A stretch of 64,000 bases of DNA, from IMG/VR virus record IMGVR_UViG_3300045974_000806, positions 1 through 64,000 of that record. One strand, written 5' to 3'. The first letter of the stretch is position 1; every line of letters starts with the position of its first letter. Below are positions 29,596 through 36,435 of the stretch, in pieces. The position numbers and the translations under genes are program-made. The notes beneath the pieces were generated by a model, which had not been told where the DNA came from, did no database searches, and worked only from the letters and a program-made list of their open reading frames with translations. Source of the stretch: a virus.

Positions 29596-30044
29596 AAAAC
29601 CTCAATGATATTAGGGAAACCCCGATTCGGGGTTTCCGGAAAACAGCAGCGTTCACGGGCACATGCGCGGTTCCGGAAGCGCGGGCTCCGCGGGTGGAGT
29701 TGCCAGAAACCCCAATGAAATTAGGGAAACCCCGATTCGGGGTTTCCCAACTTGAAGACGACTTGAAGACGACTTCAACGCGTGTTGAAACCGACTTCAA
29801 TACGTTCAATCGGTATATCCGGAAGAACCGGATCTTCCGGAGAGAGACAAGATCAAAACCAATGGCCCTGAACGGTTGTTCAGTGCTAGCACGGGAGGGG
29901 GAAAAGGGTGCAAGTCACCTTTTGAAAACCTGCCGTGAAAGGGCCATCACTGGCTGCGCCAGTAGAGGGCCTGCGGGCTGCTGCGCAGCCCTCCGGCCCT
30001 CCCAGGATGCTTGGCTGACACGCTGGGAAGGATTCAGGCCATGA
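29592..30044 (+). CDS. ORF spanning the putative origin (initiator linker/C-terminal-like)
   Basis: GTG 29592 overlaps upstream TGA and its TGA overlaps helicase ATG 30041, so it is coupled at both ends. Confidence 0.45.
   Translation: MKNLNDIRETPIRGFRKTAAFTGTCAVPEARAPRVELPETPMKLGKPRFGVSQLEDDLKTTSTRVETDFNTFNRYIRKNRIFRRETRSKPMALNGCSVLAREGEKGASHLLKTCRERAITGCASRGPAGCCAALRPSQDAWLTRWEGFRP
29597..29841. repeat. Putative replication origin: two 41-bp repeats with 23-bp palindromes, five 11-bp tandem units and an inverted repeat
   Basis: GGAAACCCCG-ATT-CGGGGTTTCC at 29615 and 29725; 11-mers ACTTGAAGACG x2, ACTTCAACGCG, TGTTGAAACCG, ACTTCAATACG (29750-29804); TCCGGAAGA-n6-TCTTCCGGA at 29818-29841; locally AT-richer. 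Confidence 0.7.
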
Positions 30045-31600
30045 CCCATAGCTACCCACCCCCCGGAAGCGAACGTCAAGCCTGGGCCGGCCCAGGGGCC
30101 TTGGTTGAAAGGGGCAACACCTGGGCGCGGCTGTCCAACCTCCCGCCCCAGACGGTGGCCGCGGTGGATGCCGCCACGTCCTACGCCACCGCCCAGGTGG
30201 ACACCGGCGGGTGGCGTCCCCCGGAAGCGGTCATGGGCGAGGAGGTGTGGGACGGCTGGGTCCATCTGGCCCGGTTCCCCGCCCCGGGCGTGGCCCTGGT
30301 GCCGGCCGGCCTGCTGGAACTGGCCCAGGCTGCCCTGGCGTCCACCGGCGTGCAGGCCCAGGTCGTGGACCACCGGGTCCGGACGGAGCCCGGCGTGCCG
30401 GACCCCGCCACCATTCCGCTGCGCCCCTACCAGCGCGCCGCGGTGGCGGCCCTGATGGATGCCGGCCAGGGCGTGCTGGACATGCCCCCACGTTCCGGAA
30501 AGACGCGCACGGCCATTGAGGCGGTGCGGCAGGTGGCGTTGCCGGCCCTGTGGATTGTCCCCACGCTCAACATTGGCAAACAAACGCAGGCCGCCGCGGA
30601 AGAGTTCATGGGCCGCAACTGGGCCGTGTTCGTTTCCGGAAACGCCGCGGCGGAAGAGGCCGCCGGCGCCCCGGTGGTGATTGTCACGCCCAACACGGCC
30701 GCGGCCCTGTCGGACGCCTTCTACGCCACGCGCAAGGTGCTGGTGATGGATGAATGCCACCACCAAGCCGCGTCCACGTGGCGGACCATCTCCAACCGCA
30801 CGCCGCACATCTGGTGGCGGTGGGGCATGTCCGGAACCTTCTTCCGGAGCGGGGAGGATGACCTTGCCATGCGCGCGGTCCTGTCCCGCGTGGTCTACCG
30901 GGTGACCGCCCAGGAACTGGTGGACATGGGGAACCTTGTGACCGGGGACGTGGTGTTCCTCCCGGTCCTGTGCGCCCTGGTGCCGTCCAGCCCGGGCAAG
31001 TCCTTCCAGGCCGGCGTGGGGGCCAAGGGAATCTTCCGGAATGACTTCCGGTCCCAGCTTGCCGCCTGGGCCGCGGCCAGCCTGTGCGCCGCCGGCAAGC
31101 GCACGGTGGTGCTGGTGGGGACCAAGGAGCAGGGCAGGACCATCACGGAGGCGCTGGAAGCGGCCCTGCCCAGGGACACAACCAGCCCCTGGAAGGCGGC
31201 GGAGTTCATCTCCACAGACCGCCCATCCAAGGTGTGCCAGGACGTCCTGGCGGCGTTCACCGCCGGCAACGGCGTGCGCGTGCTGATTGGCACGTCCATG
31301 ATCGGGGAGGGCACGGACCTCCCGACATCGGACGCGCTGGTGTACGCGATGGGCGGCAAGGCGGAGGTGAGCCACACGCAGGCCGCCTACCGCGTGATCA
31401 CCGCGGTCCCAGGCAAGCGCCGCGCAATCATCGTGGACTTCGCAGACCGTCACAACCCGACGCTGCTCCGCCATTCCGAGGAACGCCTGCGCACCTACGT
31501 GGGACAGCCGGTGTTCCGGACGCACGTGTTGCAACAGGTGGAAGAGTTCCAGGGTTGGCTGCAACACGGTGAGACGTTTTTGCCCCAGCCCACTACCTAG
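30041..31600 (+). CDS. Superfamily 2 DExH helicase (UvsW/XPB-like)
   Basis: LRPYQ Q-motif, PPRSGKT Walker A, DECHH, GMSGT, EGTDLP. Confidence 0.92.
   Translation: MTHSYPPPGSERQAWAGPGALVERGNTWARLSNLPPQTVAAVDAATSYATAQVDTGGWRPPEAVMGEEVWDGWVHLARFPAPGVALVPAGLLELAQAALASTGVQAQVVDHRVRTEPGVPDPATIPLRPYQRAAVAALMDAGQGVLDMPPRSGKTRTAIEAVRQVALPALWIVPTLNIGKQTQAAAEEFMGRNWAVFVSGNAAAEEAAGAPVVIVTPNTAAALSDAFYATRKVLVMDECHHQAASTWRTISNRTPHIWWRWGMSGTFFRSGEDDLAMRAVLSRVVYRVTAQELVDMGNLVTGDVVFLPVLCALVPSSPGKSFQAGVGAKGIFRNDFRSQLAAWAAASLCAAGKRTVVLVGTKEQGRTITEALEAALPRDTTSPWKAAEFISTDRPSKVCQDVLAAFTAGNGVRVLIGTSMIGEGTDLPTSDALVYAMGGKAEVSHTQAAYRVITAVPGKRRAIIVDFADRHNPTLLRHSEERLRTYVGQPVFRTHVLQQVEEFQGWLQHGETFLPQPTT
31569..31599 (+). 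promoter_or_regulatory. Phage-specific promoter-like motif copy 1 (GTGAGACGTTT-N11-CACTACCTA)
   Basis: Identical bipartite motif at four operon starts. Confidence 0.75.
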
Positions 31601-31700: not shown

Positions 31701-32111
31701 ATGAGCAAAGACGGCAAGTTCAGGCTTGGCATCGACATGCACGACGAACAGTTGCGGGTGGCCATGGGCGACCCCAACCGGCTGGCCCTTTGGGCGGAGC
31801 AGACGGGGCGCGGGTTCATTGTGCTCAACACGCGCCACCTCATCCGCGCGCTGGAATGGCCCGCCGGCATCCAACTGGTGCAGCAGGTGGTGAGCGCCTA
31901 CCGCGACTTCCGCCGGACCCTTCCGGATGCGTACCGGGAACAGGTGACCGCCACGGACCACGCCACCGGCCGGCAGGTCACGGTGGAGACGGACGTCATG
32001 CTGGACGAGACGCCCAGCCTGGACGAGATTGCCGCGCTCCGGAAGCAGTTGGATGACATGGAGGCGGACGTTCGCGCGGACCTGGGCCGGCGCAAGGCGG
32101 TGCGGTCATGA
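31701..32111 (+). CDS. Hypothetical protein
   Basis: GGAGGA RBS; ATGA coupling to next gene. Confidence 0.7.
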   Translation: MSKDGKFRLGIDMHDEQLRVAMGDPNRLALWAEQTGRGFIVLNTRHLIRALEWPAGIQLVQQVVSAYRDFRRTLPDAYREQVTATDHATGRQVTVETDVMLDETPSLDEIAALRKQLDDMEADVRADLGRRKAVRS

Positions 32112-32515
32112 GCGGCCCGTGGCTCCCTCCGTTGCCGTTGTCTTACGTGCCGCCCGCCACCCCGGACGGCCCCAGCAAGAGCGCGCCCGGGCAGAAGAAA
32201 CGGAAGAACTACGGGCCGGAGAGTGAGATGTGGGACGCGCTGAAGGGAACGCGCGTCCACATCCGCCTGCTGGACGGTGACCTTTGCTGGGGCGTCCTGG
32301 CCTGGGTGGACGTGTTCACCATTGCCGTGGACCTTGACTCGTTCCTGGCGGGGAAGCGCCTCGACTACGCGGCAAGCCGTGTCAACCCACCGCGCCGGAG
32401 GATGATCTACAAGCACGCCATCTCCGACGTGGGCGAGTCCCGCTCCCAGGTTCCGGAAGAGGACCCGGAAGGCCGGCACACCATTCCCCTGGACTCGGAC
32501 GTGCGCCGGCCATGA
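32108..32515 (+). CDS. hfq: Hfq-like (Sm-fold) RNA-binding protein
   Basis: Sm1-like DALKGTRVHIRLLDGDLCWGVLAWVDVFTI and the Hfq Sm2 signature MIYKHAISDV. Confidence 0.8.
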   Translation: MSGPWLPPLPLSYVPPATPDGPSKSAPGQKKRKNYGPESEMWDALKGTRVHIRLLDGDLCWGVLAWVDVFTIAVDLDSFLAGKRLDYAASRVNPPRRRMIYKHAISDVGESRSQVPEEDPEGRHTIPLDSDVRRP

Positions 32516-33126
32516 GCGCGCTGGCCTTCACCCTGGTGGAGGATTGGAACGTCTACCTGATGCAGACGTTCCACGTTCACCAGATGCGCGCCCAGGGGCG
32601 CTACATCGGGACCCGCCGGCCCAATGCGGCCAACGTGGCCATGATGGATGCCATGGTGGAATGGTGCCGCGGCCGGGCCATTGAGCCGCGCCAGTGGCTG
32701 TTCTTCCTGTTCAAGCGCACCAACTGGCGGTTCCCCCCGAAGTGGCAAGAGGGCTACCTGATGAGCGAGGCGGCGGCAAAGAAGTTCCGGAAGCCGGCCA
32801 AGTACAGCCTTGCGTTCTTCCGCCGGCGGATGGGCGCCGCGGCGGTGGTGGATGACGCCGCCTATGACCCCAACCGGGACATCACGCCGGCAACGGAAGC
32901 CCTCAAGGCCCGCTACGCGGAAAGCGGGCAGCAGATGCGGTGCCTGGATGAAACGCTGGTGCGCACCGCCGGCTTCCATCCGCAGTCCCGCGTGTGCGCC
33001 GCGTGCAAGCTGTCCCAGGAATGCGCCCTGGCCCTGGAAGCCGCGGCACCGTTTGCCATCCTGGCCCTCCGTTCCGGAATAATCACCAGCAGCGAAGCTG
33101 AAAGACAGGCCGTCCTCCATGACTGA
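32512..33126 (+). CDS. Hypothetical replication-module protein with C-terminal Cys cluster
   Basis: Directly upstream of and overlapping helicase; C-x2-C-x5-C. Confidence 0.65.
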   Translation: MSALAFTLVEDWNVYLMQTFHVHQMRAQGRYIGTRRPNAANVAMMDAMVEWCRGRAIEPRQWLFFLFKRTNWRFPPKWQEGYLMSEAAAKKFRKPAKYSLAFFRRRMGAAAVVDDAAYDPNRDITPATEALKARYAESGQQMRCLDETLVRTAGFHPQSRVCAACKLSQECALALEAAAPFAILALRSGIITSSEAERQAVLHD

Positions 33127-34621
33127 TGCGCCACCGCCCATCCGGCGCCGCGGAATCCAGAACCCCCAGCAGCCGGGCCTCACGTCCCAGGACACGGAGC
33201 ACCTTCCCCTGGACGCGGACTTCCAGGGCGTGCTCATCAAGATGCTGTTGGAGGACCACGACCTTGCCGCGGGCCTGGGTGGGCACCTCCACCCCACGTT
33301 CTTTGCAAGCCCGGTCCACCGGTGGGCCTGGGACTATTGCCTCCGGTACAAGCAGGACATTGGCGGCTACCCAACGCTGAACTTCCTTGTGTCCTCCGCC
33401 GGCCAGATGCCCGGCAGCGGCCCGCTGTTCTCCGCCACCCTGGCCCAGATTCGGGACCGGCCCATCACGGACGAGGTGGCCGTGCGCACGCAGGCCGTGG
33501 ACTTCATCCGCCGCAGCGTGTTCAAGCGCGCGGTGCTGGACAGCAAAGACCTGTTCAACGCCGGCAAGTACGGCGCCGCCTATGACCTCATGAAGGAACG
33601 CATGGGCGTGCTGGATGCCGTGAGCATTGAGCCGGTGAGCCGCGCGTGGTTCTCGGAAGAGTTCGTGTCCCGCCACATCGAACGCCAGGACCCCACCTAT
33701 CAGGCCAGCGCCATTGCCACCGGCATCCCGCCGCTGGATGGCCGGCCACCCCAGGGCGTGCTGGACGGCGGGTTGCACCTGGGTGAACTGGGCCTGTGGA
33801 TTGCCTATCCCAAGGCCGGCAAGACCACCATGTTGATCAACCTGGGCGCGGTGGCCGTGCGCACGCAGCGCAAGAGGACGCTCCACATTGTGCTTGAGGG
33901 CAGTCTTTCCTACGTGGAGGCCCGCTATGACAGCGTGTTCACCGGTGAACTCTACGTCAACGTGAAGCGGGGCGAGGTGGACGCCCAGAAGTACGCGCGC
34001 GCGTTTGCGGAGATGCAGGAACTCCGGCGCATGCTTGTCATCCGCGACTTCACAAAGACGGGTGACGCCAACATCACGCACGTGGACGGGGAACTGCGGG
34101 ACCTTGCCCGCGGCTTTGGGTTCCAGCCGGAATTGATCGTGCTGGACTACGTGGACCTGCTCCAAGCCAAGTACCGCTATGAGCGCGAGGTGGAGGCGGC
34201 CAAGGCGGCCATGCAAGACTTGAAGAACCTTGCCAACCGCGGCTACGCGGTGTGGAGCGCGTCCCAGGTCCAACGCCCGACGGACGATGAGTACCAGCAC
34301 CGCCAGCACACCCTGGTGAGCAAGAACATTGCGGACTGTTACGCCAAGGTGCGCATTGCTGACTTTGTGGGGAGCATCAACCAGACGGTGGCGGAGCGGG
34401 AACAGGGCGTGATGCGCCTCTTTGCGGAACTGTACCGGGACGGCCCCAGCGGCGTGAACATCCAGATCAACACGGACTTCACCACCATGACGTTCAGCGG
34501 CGGTTCCGCGGTCGTCACGCCGGCACCTGGGCCTGAGCGTTCAACGGACGCGTCAGTGCAGGCAACCAAGCCCATGCTCTACAAGACCGGAGGCTACCAA
34601 CAGAAGCGCGGAGTGACGTGA
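33119..34621 (+). CDS. dnaB: Replicative DNA helicase (DnaB/T4 gp41-like)
   Basis: IATGIPPLD, AYPKAGKT, HIVLE, LIVLDYVDLL, WSASQ motifs. Confidence 0.92.
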   Translation: MTDAPPPIRRRGIQNPQQPGLTSQDTEHLPLDADFQGVLIKMLLEDHDLAAGLGGHLHPTFFASPVHRWAWDYCLRYKQDIGGYPTLNFLVSSAGQMPGSGPLFSATLAQIRDRPITDEVAVRTQAVDFIRRSVFKRAVLDSKDLFNAGKYGAAYDLMKERMGVLDAVSIEPVSRAWFSEEFVSRHIERQDPTYQASAIATGIPPLDGRPPQGVLDGGLHLGELGLWIAYPKAGKTTMLINLGAVAVRTQRKRTLHIVLEGSLSYVEARYDSVFTGELYVNVKRGEVDAQKYARAFAEMQELRRMLVIRDFTKTGDANITHVDGELRDLARGFGFQPELIVLDYVDLLQAKYRYEREVEAAKAAMQDLKNLANRGYAVWSASQVQRPTDDEYQHRQHTLVSKNIADCYAKVRIADFVGSINQTVAEREQGVMRLFAELYRDGPSGVNIQINTDFTTMTFSGGSAVVTPAPGPERSTDASVQATKPMLYKTGGYQQKRGVT

Positions 34622-35691
34622 TGGATGAACTGACCCTGGCCCTTCAACGGTTTGACCTGCTGGCCTACGTGGAGGCCAAGGGCGCGGTGAAGGACGGCCG
34701 TGACGAGATGGTGTTGTTTTGCCCGCAGTGCGAGACGGAGAAGCTGACCGTGAACCCGCACAACCGCATGTGGCGGTGCTTCCGGTGTGAGTACCTGACG
34801 GAGACGGGCGCGCTGCACGGCGCCAAGCCCCGGGGCAACGTGTTCCAACTGGTGGAGTGGCTGGAAGGCACGTCCAAGCGTGACACCGCGCGGTTCATCC
34901 TTGAGCGCGCTTCCGGACAGACCGCGGACGCCATGGCCGGCCCCCTGGTGACGGACTTTGCACCGGTGGTGACGCACGCGCTCAAACGCCCCACGGGCCT
35001 TCCGGAATCTTGTGTTGCAATCACCGCAATCTTGCCGTACATGAAACGGCGCGGCATCACATTGGAGGACGCGGCGATGTTTGGCTTGGGGCATGTGCCG
35101 GCGGAGGCGGGCGGGTGGTTGGCCAACCGGATCATCTTTCCGGTGTGGGACCGCGGCCAGTGTCTCTATTGGCAGGCCCGCGCGTGCTGGGACGTGCATG
35201 AGCACGTGGCCCGCTGGCCCGGTGACAAGTTCCGGAAGAGCCTGAACCCGTCCAGTGAGCGCAACGGCCAGTTCTTCCTGGGTTCGTCTGACGTGGTGGG
35301 CAACTTGGAGAGCGCAGTGGCGTGCAGCCCGCGCCCGGTGATCGTGGAAGGCCCCACGTCCGGAATCCGCACAGGCCCGGACGCCATGTGGACGTTCGGC
35401 AAGAACCTCTACCCGGCCCAGGTGGTGCGGATGGTGGAGCACGGCGTGCGCGCGGTGGACTTCATGTGGGACGGCCCGTCCGCTCCGGACGCCGCCGGCG
35501 TGCGCAAGGAGCCCCTGGGCGCGTGGCCGGACATGCTGCGCCACGCCCCCACGCTGGTGAGTGCCGGCATTGACGTGCGCGTGGTGTTCATCCCCCAGGG
35601 GGACCCGGGCGACTATTCCAGGGCAGAAGTGGCGGAGATGCGGCGGGTTTGGTCCCGCCCGTTCGCGGAGGTGTCAACGTGGTCGCTGTGA
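34618..35691 (+). CDS. DNA primase (Zn-finger + TOPRIM)
   Basis: CPQC...CFRC; RIIFPV...QAR; IVEG...MWDG...GDPGD. Confidence 0.9.
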   Translation: MMDELTLALQRFDLLAYVEAKGAVKDGRDEMVLFCPQCETEKLTVNPHNRMWRCFRCEYLTETGALHGAKPRGNVFQLVEWLEGTSKRDTARFILERASGQTADAMAGPLVTDFAPVVTHALKRPTGLPESCVAITAILPYMKRRGITLEDAAMFGLGHVPAEAGGWLANRIIFPVWDRGQCLYWQARACWDVHEHVARWPGDKFRKSLNPSSERNGQFFLGSSDVVGNLESAVACSPRPVIVEGPTSGIRTGPDAMWTFGKNLYPAQVVRMVEHGVRAVDFMWDGPSAPDAAGVRKEPLGAWPDMLRHAPTLVSAGIDVRVVFIPQGDPGDYSRAEVAEMRRVWSRPFAEVSTWSL

Positions 35692-35979: not shown

Positions 35980-36435
35980 ATGGACCAGACCAAGGCGGTG
36001 CGCGCCCTCGCGCGCAAGTTCCGGCGTTCCAGCGATGACGACTGGGATGGCCTGACACAGGAAGACTGGGAGCAGGAACTCCGGATTGCGTGGTGGCTGG
36101 CGGAGAAGTCCGGAAAGCCACCGGTGCTGGGCGCCTACTTCCGCGCCAGGGAATTGCAGCGCACCCGCTGGGCCGCGTTCCGGATGCGTGAAAGGGTCCT
36201 GGCGGTGCAGCACCTCCAAAAGGAGGCGGACCCGCTGACGGACCCCGCCCAACACACGTCGGCTTGTATCCGGAATGCCCACAGCCTACTGTCTCCGGAA
36301 CTGTGGGACGTGATGAACTGCATGGGCGCTGGGATGTCCACACCTGAAGTGGCGGCGGAGTTCGGTTGGACCCGCGCCACAGCAGGCCGGCGCATCCAAG
36401 CGGCCCGGGAGCAGGCCCACCACATCCTGAAGTAG
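35980..36435 (+). CDS. ECF/sigma70-like phage transcription factor
   Basis: Region-2-like ARKF...EDWEQE..IAWW and region-4 HTH GMSTPEVAAEFGWTRATAGRRIQAAR. Confidence 0.65.
   Translation: MDQTKAVRALARKFRRSSDDDWDGLTQEDWEQELRIAWWLAEKSGKPPVLGAYFRARELQRTRWAAFRMRERVLAVQHLQKEADPLTDPAQHTSACIRNAHSLLSPELWDVMNCMGAGMSTPEVAAEFGWTRATAGRRIQAAREQAHHILK

Follow-up and report, generated by a model that had tools for sequence, protein, structure and literature searches.

Why does a phage keep an Hfq-like gene among the genes for its helicases and primase? The question is raised by a gene at 32108..32515 on the plus strand of a 64,000-nucleotide (nt) stretch of viral DNA, the window analysed here, which is the first 64 kb of the IMG/VR virus record IMGVR_UViG_3300045974_000806. 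The gene encodes a protein of 135 amino acids (aa), named P0001. The original prediction, made from the letters alone, had described it as a phage-encoded Hfq-like protein. Profile, fold and synteny evidence support this identity, and the comparisons below show P0001 to be a true, though strongly diverged, Hfq-branch protein of the Sm superfamily. As to its function, we infer, at about an even chance of being right, that P0001 forms an Hfq-type ring with affinity for single-stranded nucleic acid and that this ring cooperates with the replication module.

The gene was recognised from its open reading frame (ORF), the GC content at third codon positions, its homologues, the family profile, an hhalign alignment and a model of the Sm fold. 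Third-position GC is 0.87 in the P0001 gene and 0.85–0.89 in the neighbouring genes. In the parts encoding the N-terminal and C-terminal tails it is 0.92 and 0.80, respectively. Because the value equals that of the neighbours and stays high in both tails, the whole frame is considered to be coding.

A strongly diverged member of the Hfq branch

A profile of ten family members was compared with solved structures. The best match was the Hfq-like protein of M. jannaschii (2qtx/5dy9), with an E-value of 3e-8 over nearly the full length. The Hfq structures of Aquifex, Caulobacter, Anabaena and Thermotoga followed with E-values of 1.7e-4 (Aquifex) to 1.2e-3, along with dozens more Hfq entries, and the structures matched were almost exclusively Hfq or Lsm proteins. 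These E-values and the nearly pure Hfq/Lsm list show that the match is more than chance. When the 29-member family alignment was compared with E. coli Hfq (the annotated K-12 record) by hhalign, the two aligned at a probability of 90% with an E-value of 1.5e-6 and 36% identity over 59 columns. The identity of P0001 to E. coli Hfq is about 28–36% by BLASTP and hhalign.

The profile check against Hfq and LSM that had been proposed for this protein gave a divided answer. The family profile reached Hfq structures as described, whereas P0001 stays below the Pfam cut-offs. Pfam Hfq matched residues 97–108 with an E-value of 3.4e-4 and 20.6 bits, against a gathering cut-off of 27 bits. Pfam Hfq_1 matched the Sm1 part (residues 48–74), also below its cut-off. 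The scores are low because an insert, described below, splits the domain. In the family, for which alignment and counts refer to 29 members throughout, Pfam Hfq matched 12 members and Hfq_1 matched six (E ≤ 0.01); among the members with scores listed, only P0010 exceeds a Pfam cut-off (Hfq_1, 29.7 bits). The eukaryotic and archaeal Sm/Lsm profile PF01423 gave no match to P0001 at E ≤ 1, and the Sm2 region of P0001 reads YKHAIS, not the Lsm-type Arg-Gly-x-Asn.

The AlphaFold model from the single sequence was unusable, with a predicted local distance difference test score (pLDDT) of 44, and the fold results come from AlphaFold run on the 29-sequence alignment. The predicted structure has one helix (residues 37–45) and five strands (49–54, 59–67, 71–80, 96–101 and 105–110), which is the alpha-beta5 topology of the Sm fold. 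The core (residues 37–110) has pLDDT above 90, apart from the insert, which is of low confidence like both tails. The N-terminal helix and Sm1 strands (49–80) that had been read from the sequence are thus present in the model. All top Foldseek matches of the model were Sm, Lsm or Hfq chains, and a search of the ESM Atlas returned LSM/Hfq clusters. VIA-align gave Z-scores of about 10 for all of these chains alike. The best-fitting Hfq chains, from E. coli (3RER), Caulobacter (6GWK) and S. aureus (1KQ2), superpose on the model with a root-mean-square deviation (rmsd) of 1.0–1.3 Å and 25–33% identity. The Sm and Lsm chains fit with an rmsd of 2.0–3.7 Å and 7–16% identity.

One departure from bacterial Hfq within the domain is a basic insert in the beta3-beta4 loop, at about residues 79–98 (32342..32401). 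It is unaligned by hhalign and BLASTP and has low pLDDT. Its size is 15–18 residues, since hhalign against E. coli Hfq leaves residues 79–93 unpaired and the BLASTP gap is 18 residues; the predicted number had been about 17. Residues 79–98 carry a net charge of +5. The original prediction had treated this long loop as an Sm/Lsm trait. The likeness is superficially right, but a long loop is found in only four of the 29 family members (P0001, P0002, P0003 and P0010), and the Hfq chains fit the core more closely than the Sm and Lsm chains do. P0001 is therefore placed on the Hfq side of the superfamily, with the long loop as a private feature.

The remaining parts of the protein were also as first described. 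The N-terminal tail (residues 1–36, 32108..32215) contains nine prolines and has a net charge of +4 and pLDDT of 55–67. Its Pro-rich part is not conserved, whereas the basic KKRK stretch that follows is conserved in the family; a basic stretch ahead of the GPES motif is shared by nearly all homologues and by the M. jannaschii Hfq-like protein. Helix alpha1 and strands beta1–beta3 (32216..32347) align with E. coli Hfq 9–47, and this region holds the family-invariant residues P37, E38, G47, L64, W66, V67 and T71. The Sm2 motif YKHAIS was found exactly, at residues 101–106 (32408..32425), and positions 46–57 of the Pfam Hfq profile map to nt 32396–32431. The C-terminal tail (residues 110–135, 32435..32512) is acidic, with seven acidic and four basic residues and a net charge of −3. 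It is probably disordered (pLDDT about 60), and acidic C-terminal tails occur in several homologues too.

The hhalign alignment was used to map P0001 residues on E. coli Hfq, and the 29-member alignment to judge their conservation. Most residues of the pore-side pocket are kept. F70 corresponds to Hfq F42, and Y101-K102-H103 to Y55-K56-H57. K102 is invariant in the family, Tyr or Phe at position 101 is nearly so, and an aromatic residue at position 70 is conserved. Where Hfq has Gln8, every family member has Glu (E38), and the residue before it is almost always Pro. The rim residues R16-R17-E18-R19 of Hfq are replaced by K46-G47-T48-R49, of which K46 is at least 90% conserved and G47 nearly invariant. 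On the distal face, Y25 and I30 of Hfq become R53 and D58, in columns that vary in the family. Because of this replacement and variability, the classical A-rich binding of the distal face has probably been lost. Trp66-Val67-Asp68 forms an invariant block specific to the Hfq-like family.

When 1.84 billion representative proteins were searched exhaustively with phmmer, nine small homologues (74–94 aa) were found, with E-values of 2.5e-11 to 3e-4. Profile searches enlarged the family to 26 and then to 45 proteins, all of them metagenomic, and a few had been named Hfq by the automatic annotation of the Joint Genome Institute. The family signature consists of a basic stretch, GPES, a helix ending in LKGK, G-x-L-x-W-V-D-x-[YF]-T-x-G, a variable loop and [YF]-K-x-A-I. 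None of the 29 members matched PHROGs, and neither P0001 nor P0027 had a tblastn match among 50,697 phage records. A word-indexed protein search with P0001 alone returned only P0001 itself. Scans with the proteins P0019 and P0061 found no viral locus, and a scan with P0042 found only L005 and L004, two of the related contigs described below. One genome-scan match, in a metagenome-assembled genome of the Deltaproteobacteria, was rejected as chance: the genes there are chemotaxis genes, with no Hfq-like ORF. Two long metagenomic proteins, P0009 (1829 aa) and P0012 (1043 aa), match the P0001 query in six and seven separate stretches by phmmer and appear to be chains of tandem Sm-like domains.

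With E. coli Hfq as the tblastn query, seven phage records matched. Four carry a bacterial-type hfq: two are Salmonella contigs filed as phage, and two are contigs of Acinetobacter phage MD-2021a in which hfq is annotated. The other three matches are weaker and lie in unannotated records. So few records indicate that canonical Hfq is not a common phage gene. The two Salmonella entries in the phage collection (AGRM01000005.1 and AFYI01000007.1) are 500-kb contigs with a 100% identical bacterial hfq, i.e. bacterial DNA.

The replication module and its relatives

The virus is an uncultured contractile-tailed phage of 110 kb; the record is 110,271 bp long and is rated complete by CheckV. GC content in the window is 65–68%, and all long ORFs with a match to a known phage gene are on the plus strand. 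Genes for a contractile tail (sheath, baseplate wedge) precede a replication set with a superfamily 2 (SF2) helicase, a DnaB-like helicase, a primase and a family-A polymerase. The closest isolated phages have less than 30% identity in the polymerase and helicases. No tRNA gene and no Rfam family was found in the 64-kb window.

The Hfq-like gene lies two genes 3′ of the SF2 helicase and two genes 5′ of the DnaB-like helicase. The module, all on the plus strand, starts with the SF2 helicase of ResIII/DEAD type (30011..31600; Pfam ResIII, E 1e-16; phrog_16 DNA helicase, E 8e-51). It is followed by orf136 (136 aa, 31701..32111), the Hfq-like gene, orf204 (204 aa, 32512..33126), the DnaB-like replicative helicase (33119..34621; Pfam DnaB_C, E 1.5e-10; phrog_19, E 4e-40) and a DnaG-type primase (34618..35691; phrog_47 DNA primase, E 1e-16). 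The Hfq-like gene shares an ATGA start/stop overlap with each neighbour, at 32108–32111 with orf136 and at 32512–32515 with orf204. The orf204/DnaB and DnaB/primase junctions overlap too, and the gap between the SF2 helicase gene and orf136 is 100 nt. No convincing terminator was found between the SF2 helicase and primase genes. The claim of translational coupling into the helicase and primase operon is borne out by these junctions.

We compared the gene neighbourhoods of the IMG/VR homologues; the members P0003, P0013, P0027, P0030, P0033 and P0045, on large contigs, stand outside this comparison. Six related IMG/VR contigs with an Hfq-like homologue (L003–L007 and L009, the last of 110,147 bp) have GC contents of 52–62%. 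All six keep the order SF2 helicase, orf136, Hfq-like gene, orf204, DnaB-like helicase and primase. Identities to the orthologues are 42–47% for the SF2 helicase, 32–46% for orf136, 33–45% for the Hfq-like protein, 33–38% for orf204, 40–47% for the DnaB-like helicase and 38–47% for the primase. The genes are tightly packed or overlapping in the relatives, and L009 keeps 4-nt overlaps on either side of the Hfq-like gene. Further family members lie on contigs of 82–111 kb, and several contigs of the clade are about 105–111 kb. Since the order is kept in six contigs and other members lie on contigs of 82–111 kb, we consider these viruses a clade of phages with a fixed module.

The two genes that flank the Hfq-like gene have no solved or named relatives and are thus of no help for the mechanism. 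For orf136, no Pfam match and no significant match to a solved structure was found, and its PHROG match is weak (phrog_8079 neck protein, E 0.0014). By eye, a conserved stretch of orf136 (R-V-A-M ... W ... G-R-x-W-x-V-L) resembles an excisionase-type helix-turn-helix, a resemblance that profile searches do not support. The orf204 protein has the invariant residues C144, H156, C162, C165 and C171, and this Cys/His cluster is likely a zinc site. Its look-alikes in the ESM Atlas are clusters of hypothetical proteins with 58–76% viral members. The gene directly before a phage helicase is the usual place of helicase-loader genes, and by position orf204 is a loader candidate.

Two other features border the module. 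Just upstream of the SF2 helicase gene, at 29597–30010, is a non-coding, repeat-rich stretch of about 400 nt with lower GC content. Two direct repeats of 41 nt lie in it at a distance of 110 nt, and each of them contains a 23–24-nt palindrome (GGAAACCCCGATTCGGGGTTTCC); there are also one tandem 11-mer pair and several TTCCGGAA palindromes. On the minus strand, U-rich tails follow the hairpins. The stretch could be an origin or operator region. After the primase, at 35980–36435, a 151-aa protein is encoded that has a weak match to sigma-70 region 4 or helix-turn-helix (E 0.0014), and the replication cluster may carry a transcription regulator too.

Possible roles of the Hfq-like protein

The proposed role starts from the ring. 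P0001 would assemble into an Hfq-type ring, and the pore-side pocket of the ring would bind nucleic acid that is single-stranded and probably rich in U or T. The basic N-terminal tail and the basic loop insert would probably give extra contacts with the nucleic acid. As in E. coli Hfq, the acidic C-terminal tail and the nucleic acid would probably compete for the basic surfaces; acidic Hfq C-tails are known to autoinhibit the basic core (PMC5606850). Most likely the protein would act with the replication machinery and would not be a small-RNA regulator of global reach. Its task could be to handle RNA or single-stranded DNA during initiation or priming, or it could modulate the ring helicase. 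Because of its translational coupling to the helicase and primase genes, P0001 would be made together with their products. The original prediction had named an RNA chaperone, a dominant-negative subunit and a replication accessory without choosing among them; a replication-linked role is favoured because the placement in the replication module is conserved.

There are precedents which make such a role plausible. Plasmids of Thermococcus and Methanocaldococcus have an Hfq-like gene immediately 3′ of the helicase gene, and a role in plasmid replication has been proposed (PMC3543421). E. coli Hfq binds the ring helicase Rho with a dissociation constant of about 40 nM and inhibits it, and the Sm-like protein YaeO/Rof likewise binds and inhibits Rho (PMC12360218). 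Hfq also influences the replication of ColE1 plasmids and binds DNA (PMC4963395).

A bolder version makes the Sm ring a dedicated replisome accessory that acts directly with the hexameric DnaB-type helicase and the primase, for example in loading or gating the helicase or in holding the RNA of primers or R-loops at initiation. We consider this version rather unlikely.

Several observations weigh against a nucleic-acid-binding ring that works with the replication machinery. The Pfam scores of P0001, as given above, are below the cut-offs. Only 12 of the 29 family members have the Sm2 His. The folded core (residues 37–78) has a net charge of −5, unusual for a nucleic-acid binder, and positive charge is confined to the N-terminal tail and the loop. 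Next to the DnaB-like helicase gene, on its 5′ side, lies orf204 and not the Hfq-like gene. The gene neighbourhood is compatible both with a replication factor and with a regulator of replication-gene expression. In T4, regA, which encodes an RNA-binding translational repressor, lies within the replication gene cluster, and this counts for a regulator.

The main rival is accordingly a serious one: a RegA-like translational regulator of the operon or, more broadly, a post-transcriptional regulator or general phage RNA chaperone, whose ring would bind phage mRNAs, such as those of the replication operon, or small RNAs, set their translation or decay, and take no direct part in DNA synthesis. The Hfq homology and the largely preserved pore-side pocket, which is typical of U-rich RNA binding, fit this explanation, and so does an acidic C-tail like that of autoregulated Hfq. 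The sigma-70 region-4-like protein at 35980–36435, weak as its match is, suggests that the cluster mixes replication and expression functions. However, the distal-face Tyr and Ile used for A-rich mRNA sites are replaced (R53 and D58), no known RNA family was found in the window, and the strict linkage to helicase and primase in all relatives exceeds what a general regulator needs. We regard a purely regulatory role as possible, though on balance unlikely.

A second rival takes P0001 as a small beta-barrel with Hfq-like motifs that binds no nucleic acid, and that could be a structural adaptor bridging orf136, orf204 and the helicase. The acidic core would be expected of such a protein, the change of Gln8 to Glu and the variable Sm2 His point the same way, and Sm-like folds such as Rof/YaeO act purely through protein binding, to the Rho helicase (work cited in PMC12360218). 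This explanation leaves the conserved pocket residues (K102, Tyr or Phe at 101, the aromatic residue at 70) without a reason, as well as the conserved basic N-terminal tail that is shared with the M. jannaschii Hfq-like protein. It is improbable.

A dominant-negative subunit that enters host Hfq hexamers and disables small-RNA regulation of the host would suit phages, which often target host global regulators, and would use the Sm2 strands, the subunit interface in Hfq, which P0001 keeps; yet the identity to E. coli Hfq is so low, the family's own invariant residues (PES, WVD) so indicative of selection for a separate function, its conservation in phages of 52–66% GC, hence across different hosts, so broad, and placement in a replication operon so unexpected of a host-takeover gene, that poisoning of host Hfq is very unlikely.

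What remains preferred is an Hfq-type ring linked to replication. Hfq is known as a cellular RNA chaperone, and its links to DNA transactions (ColE1, DNA binding, Rho) are real but poorly understood. A phage lineage with a remodelled Hfq fixed in a helicase-primase operon offers a compact natural system in which to study what an Sm ring does at or close to a replication fork. If the role is direct, the replisome would have an accessory protein of a new class, and a very old RNA-binding fold would gain a new function.

Comparison with known systems

Compared with bacterial Hfq (PF17209; E. coli 3RER/1HK9, S. aureus 1KQ1/1KQ2 and Caulobacter 6GWK), P0001 has the same predicted alpha-beta5 Sm fold, the YKHAIS motif, the pocket residues F42, Y55, K56 and H57, an acidic C-tail predicted to be disordered and a basic LKG(K/T)R stretch at the position of the rim. 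It differs in scoring below the Pfam cut-off, in having Glu for Gln8 and Arg and Asp for Tyr25 and Ile30, and in its 18-residue basic beta3-beta4 insert and 36-residue Pro/Lys N-tail. The genetic setting also differs. In E. coli, hfq is chromosomal, in the order miaA-hfq-hflX, whereas the P0001 gene is phage-encoded and fixed in a helicase-primase operon.

Sm/Hfq-like proteins of phages are already known. They include a cyanophage-derived pentameric Sm-like protein (Das et al. 2009, as cited in PMC3710371) and gp39 of mycobacteriophage Adephagia (PMC11373665). In BFVD, Sm-like models from mycobacteriophages Tonenili and Phabba, Gordonia phage Reyja and Pseudomonas phage nickie gave weak matches, with target-normalised template modelling scores (TM-scores) of 0.4–0.7. 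These proteins are small and Sm-like in fold, as P0001 is, and are known by structure or annotation only. They have no sequence similarity to the P0001 family that tblastn against the 50,697 phage records or PHROGs could detect. Judged by such searches, isolated phages have no sequence with detectable similarity to this rare family, and a search of the literature turned up no work on a phage Hfq within a replication operon.

T4 RegA is a small RNA-binding protein that controls the translation of replication genes. It would be a functional analogue only, since it is unrelated in fold and sequence and is not a ring. If the role of P0001 is regulatory, the family would be a phage post-transcriptional controller of replication genes that is built unlike RegA.

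The best match by profile is archaeal. With MJ1435 of M. jannaschii (2QTX, 5DY9), the profile match spans the basic N-terminal stretch, the helix, Sm1 and an FKHAI Sm2. MJ1435 differs from the family in being chromosomal, in its short loop, in the lack of long tails, and in having Asn and Gly where the family has Glu-38 and Trp-66. The archaeal plasmids pP12-1, pCIR10, pIRI48 and pMETVU01 (Krupovic et al. 2013, PMC3543421) resemble the present case in gene context: a mobile element encodes an Hfq-like domain in one transcription unit with a helicase. The plasmid gene lies directly downstream of the helicase gene, whereas the P0001 gene has a helicase gene to either side, each separated from it by one small ORF. 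Most of the plasmid proteins have an N-terminal C2H2 zinc finger, whereas residues 1–36 of P0001 contain no Cys or His. The carriers differ too, P0001 being from a bacterial-type phage and the zinc-finger/Hfq-like proteins from archaeal plasmids. One family member from a 111-kb contig, P0027 (101 aa), carries a single CPQC pair in an extension N-terminal to the Hfq-like domain, a faint echo of the archaeal fusions. If P0001 does act directly with the helicase and primase, the Sm superfamily would have a role in DNA replication that is shared by these phages and the archaeal plasmids with Hfq-like genes beside their helicases.

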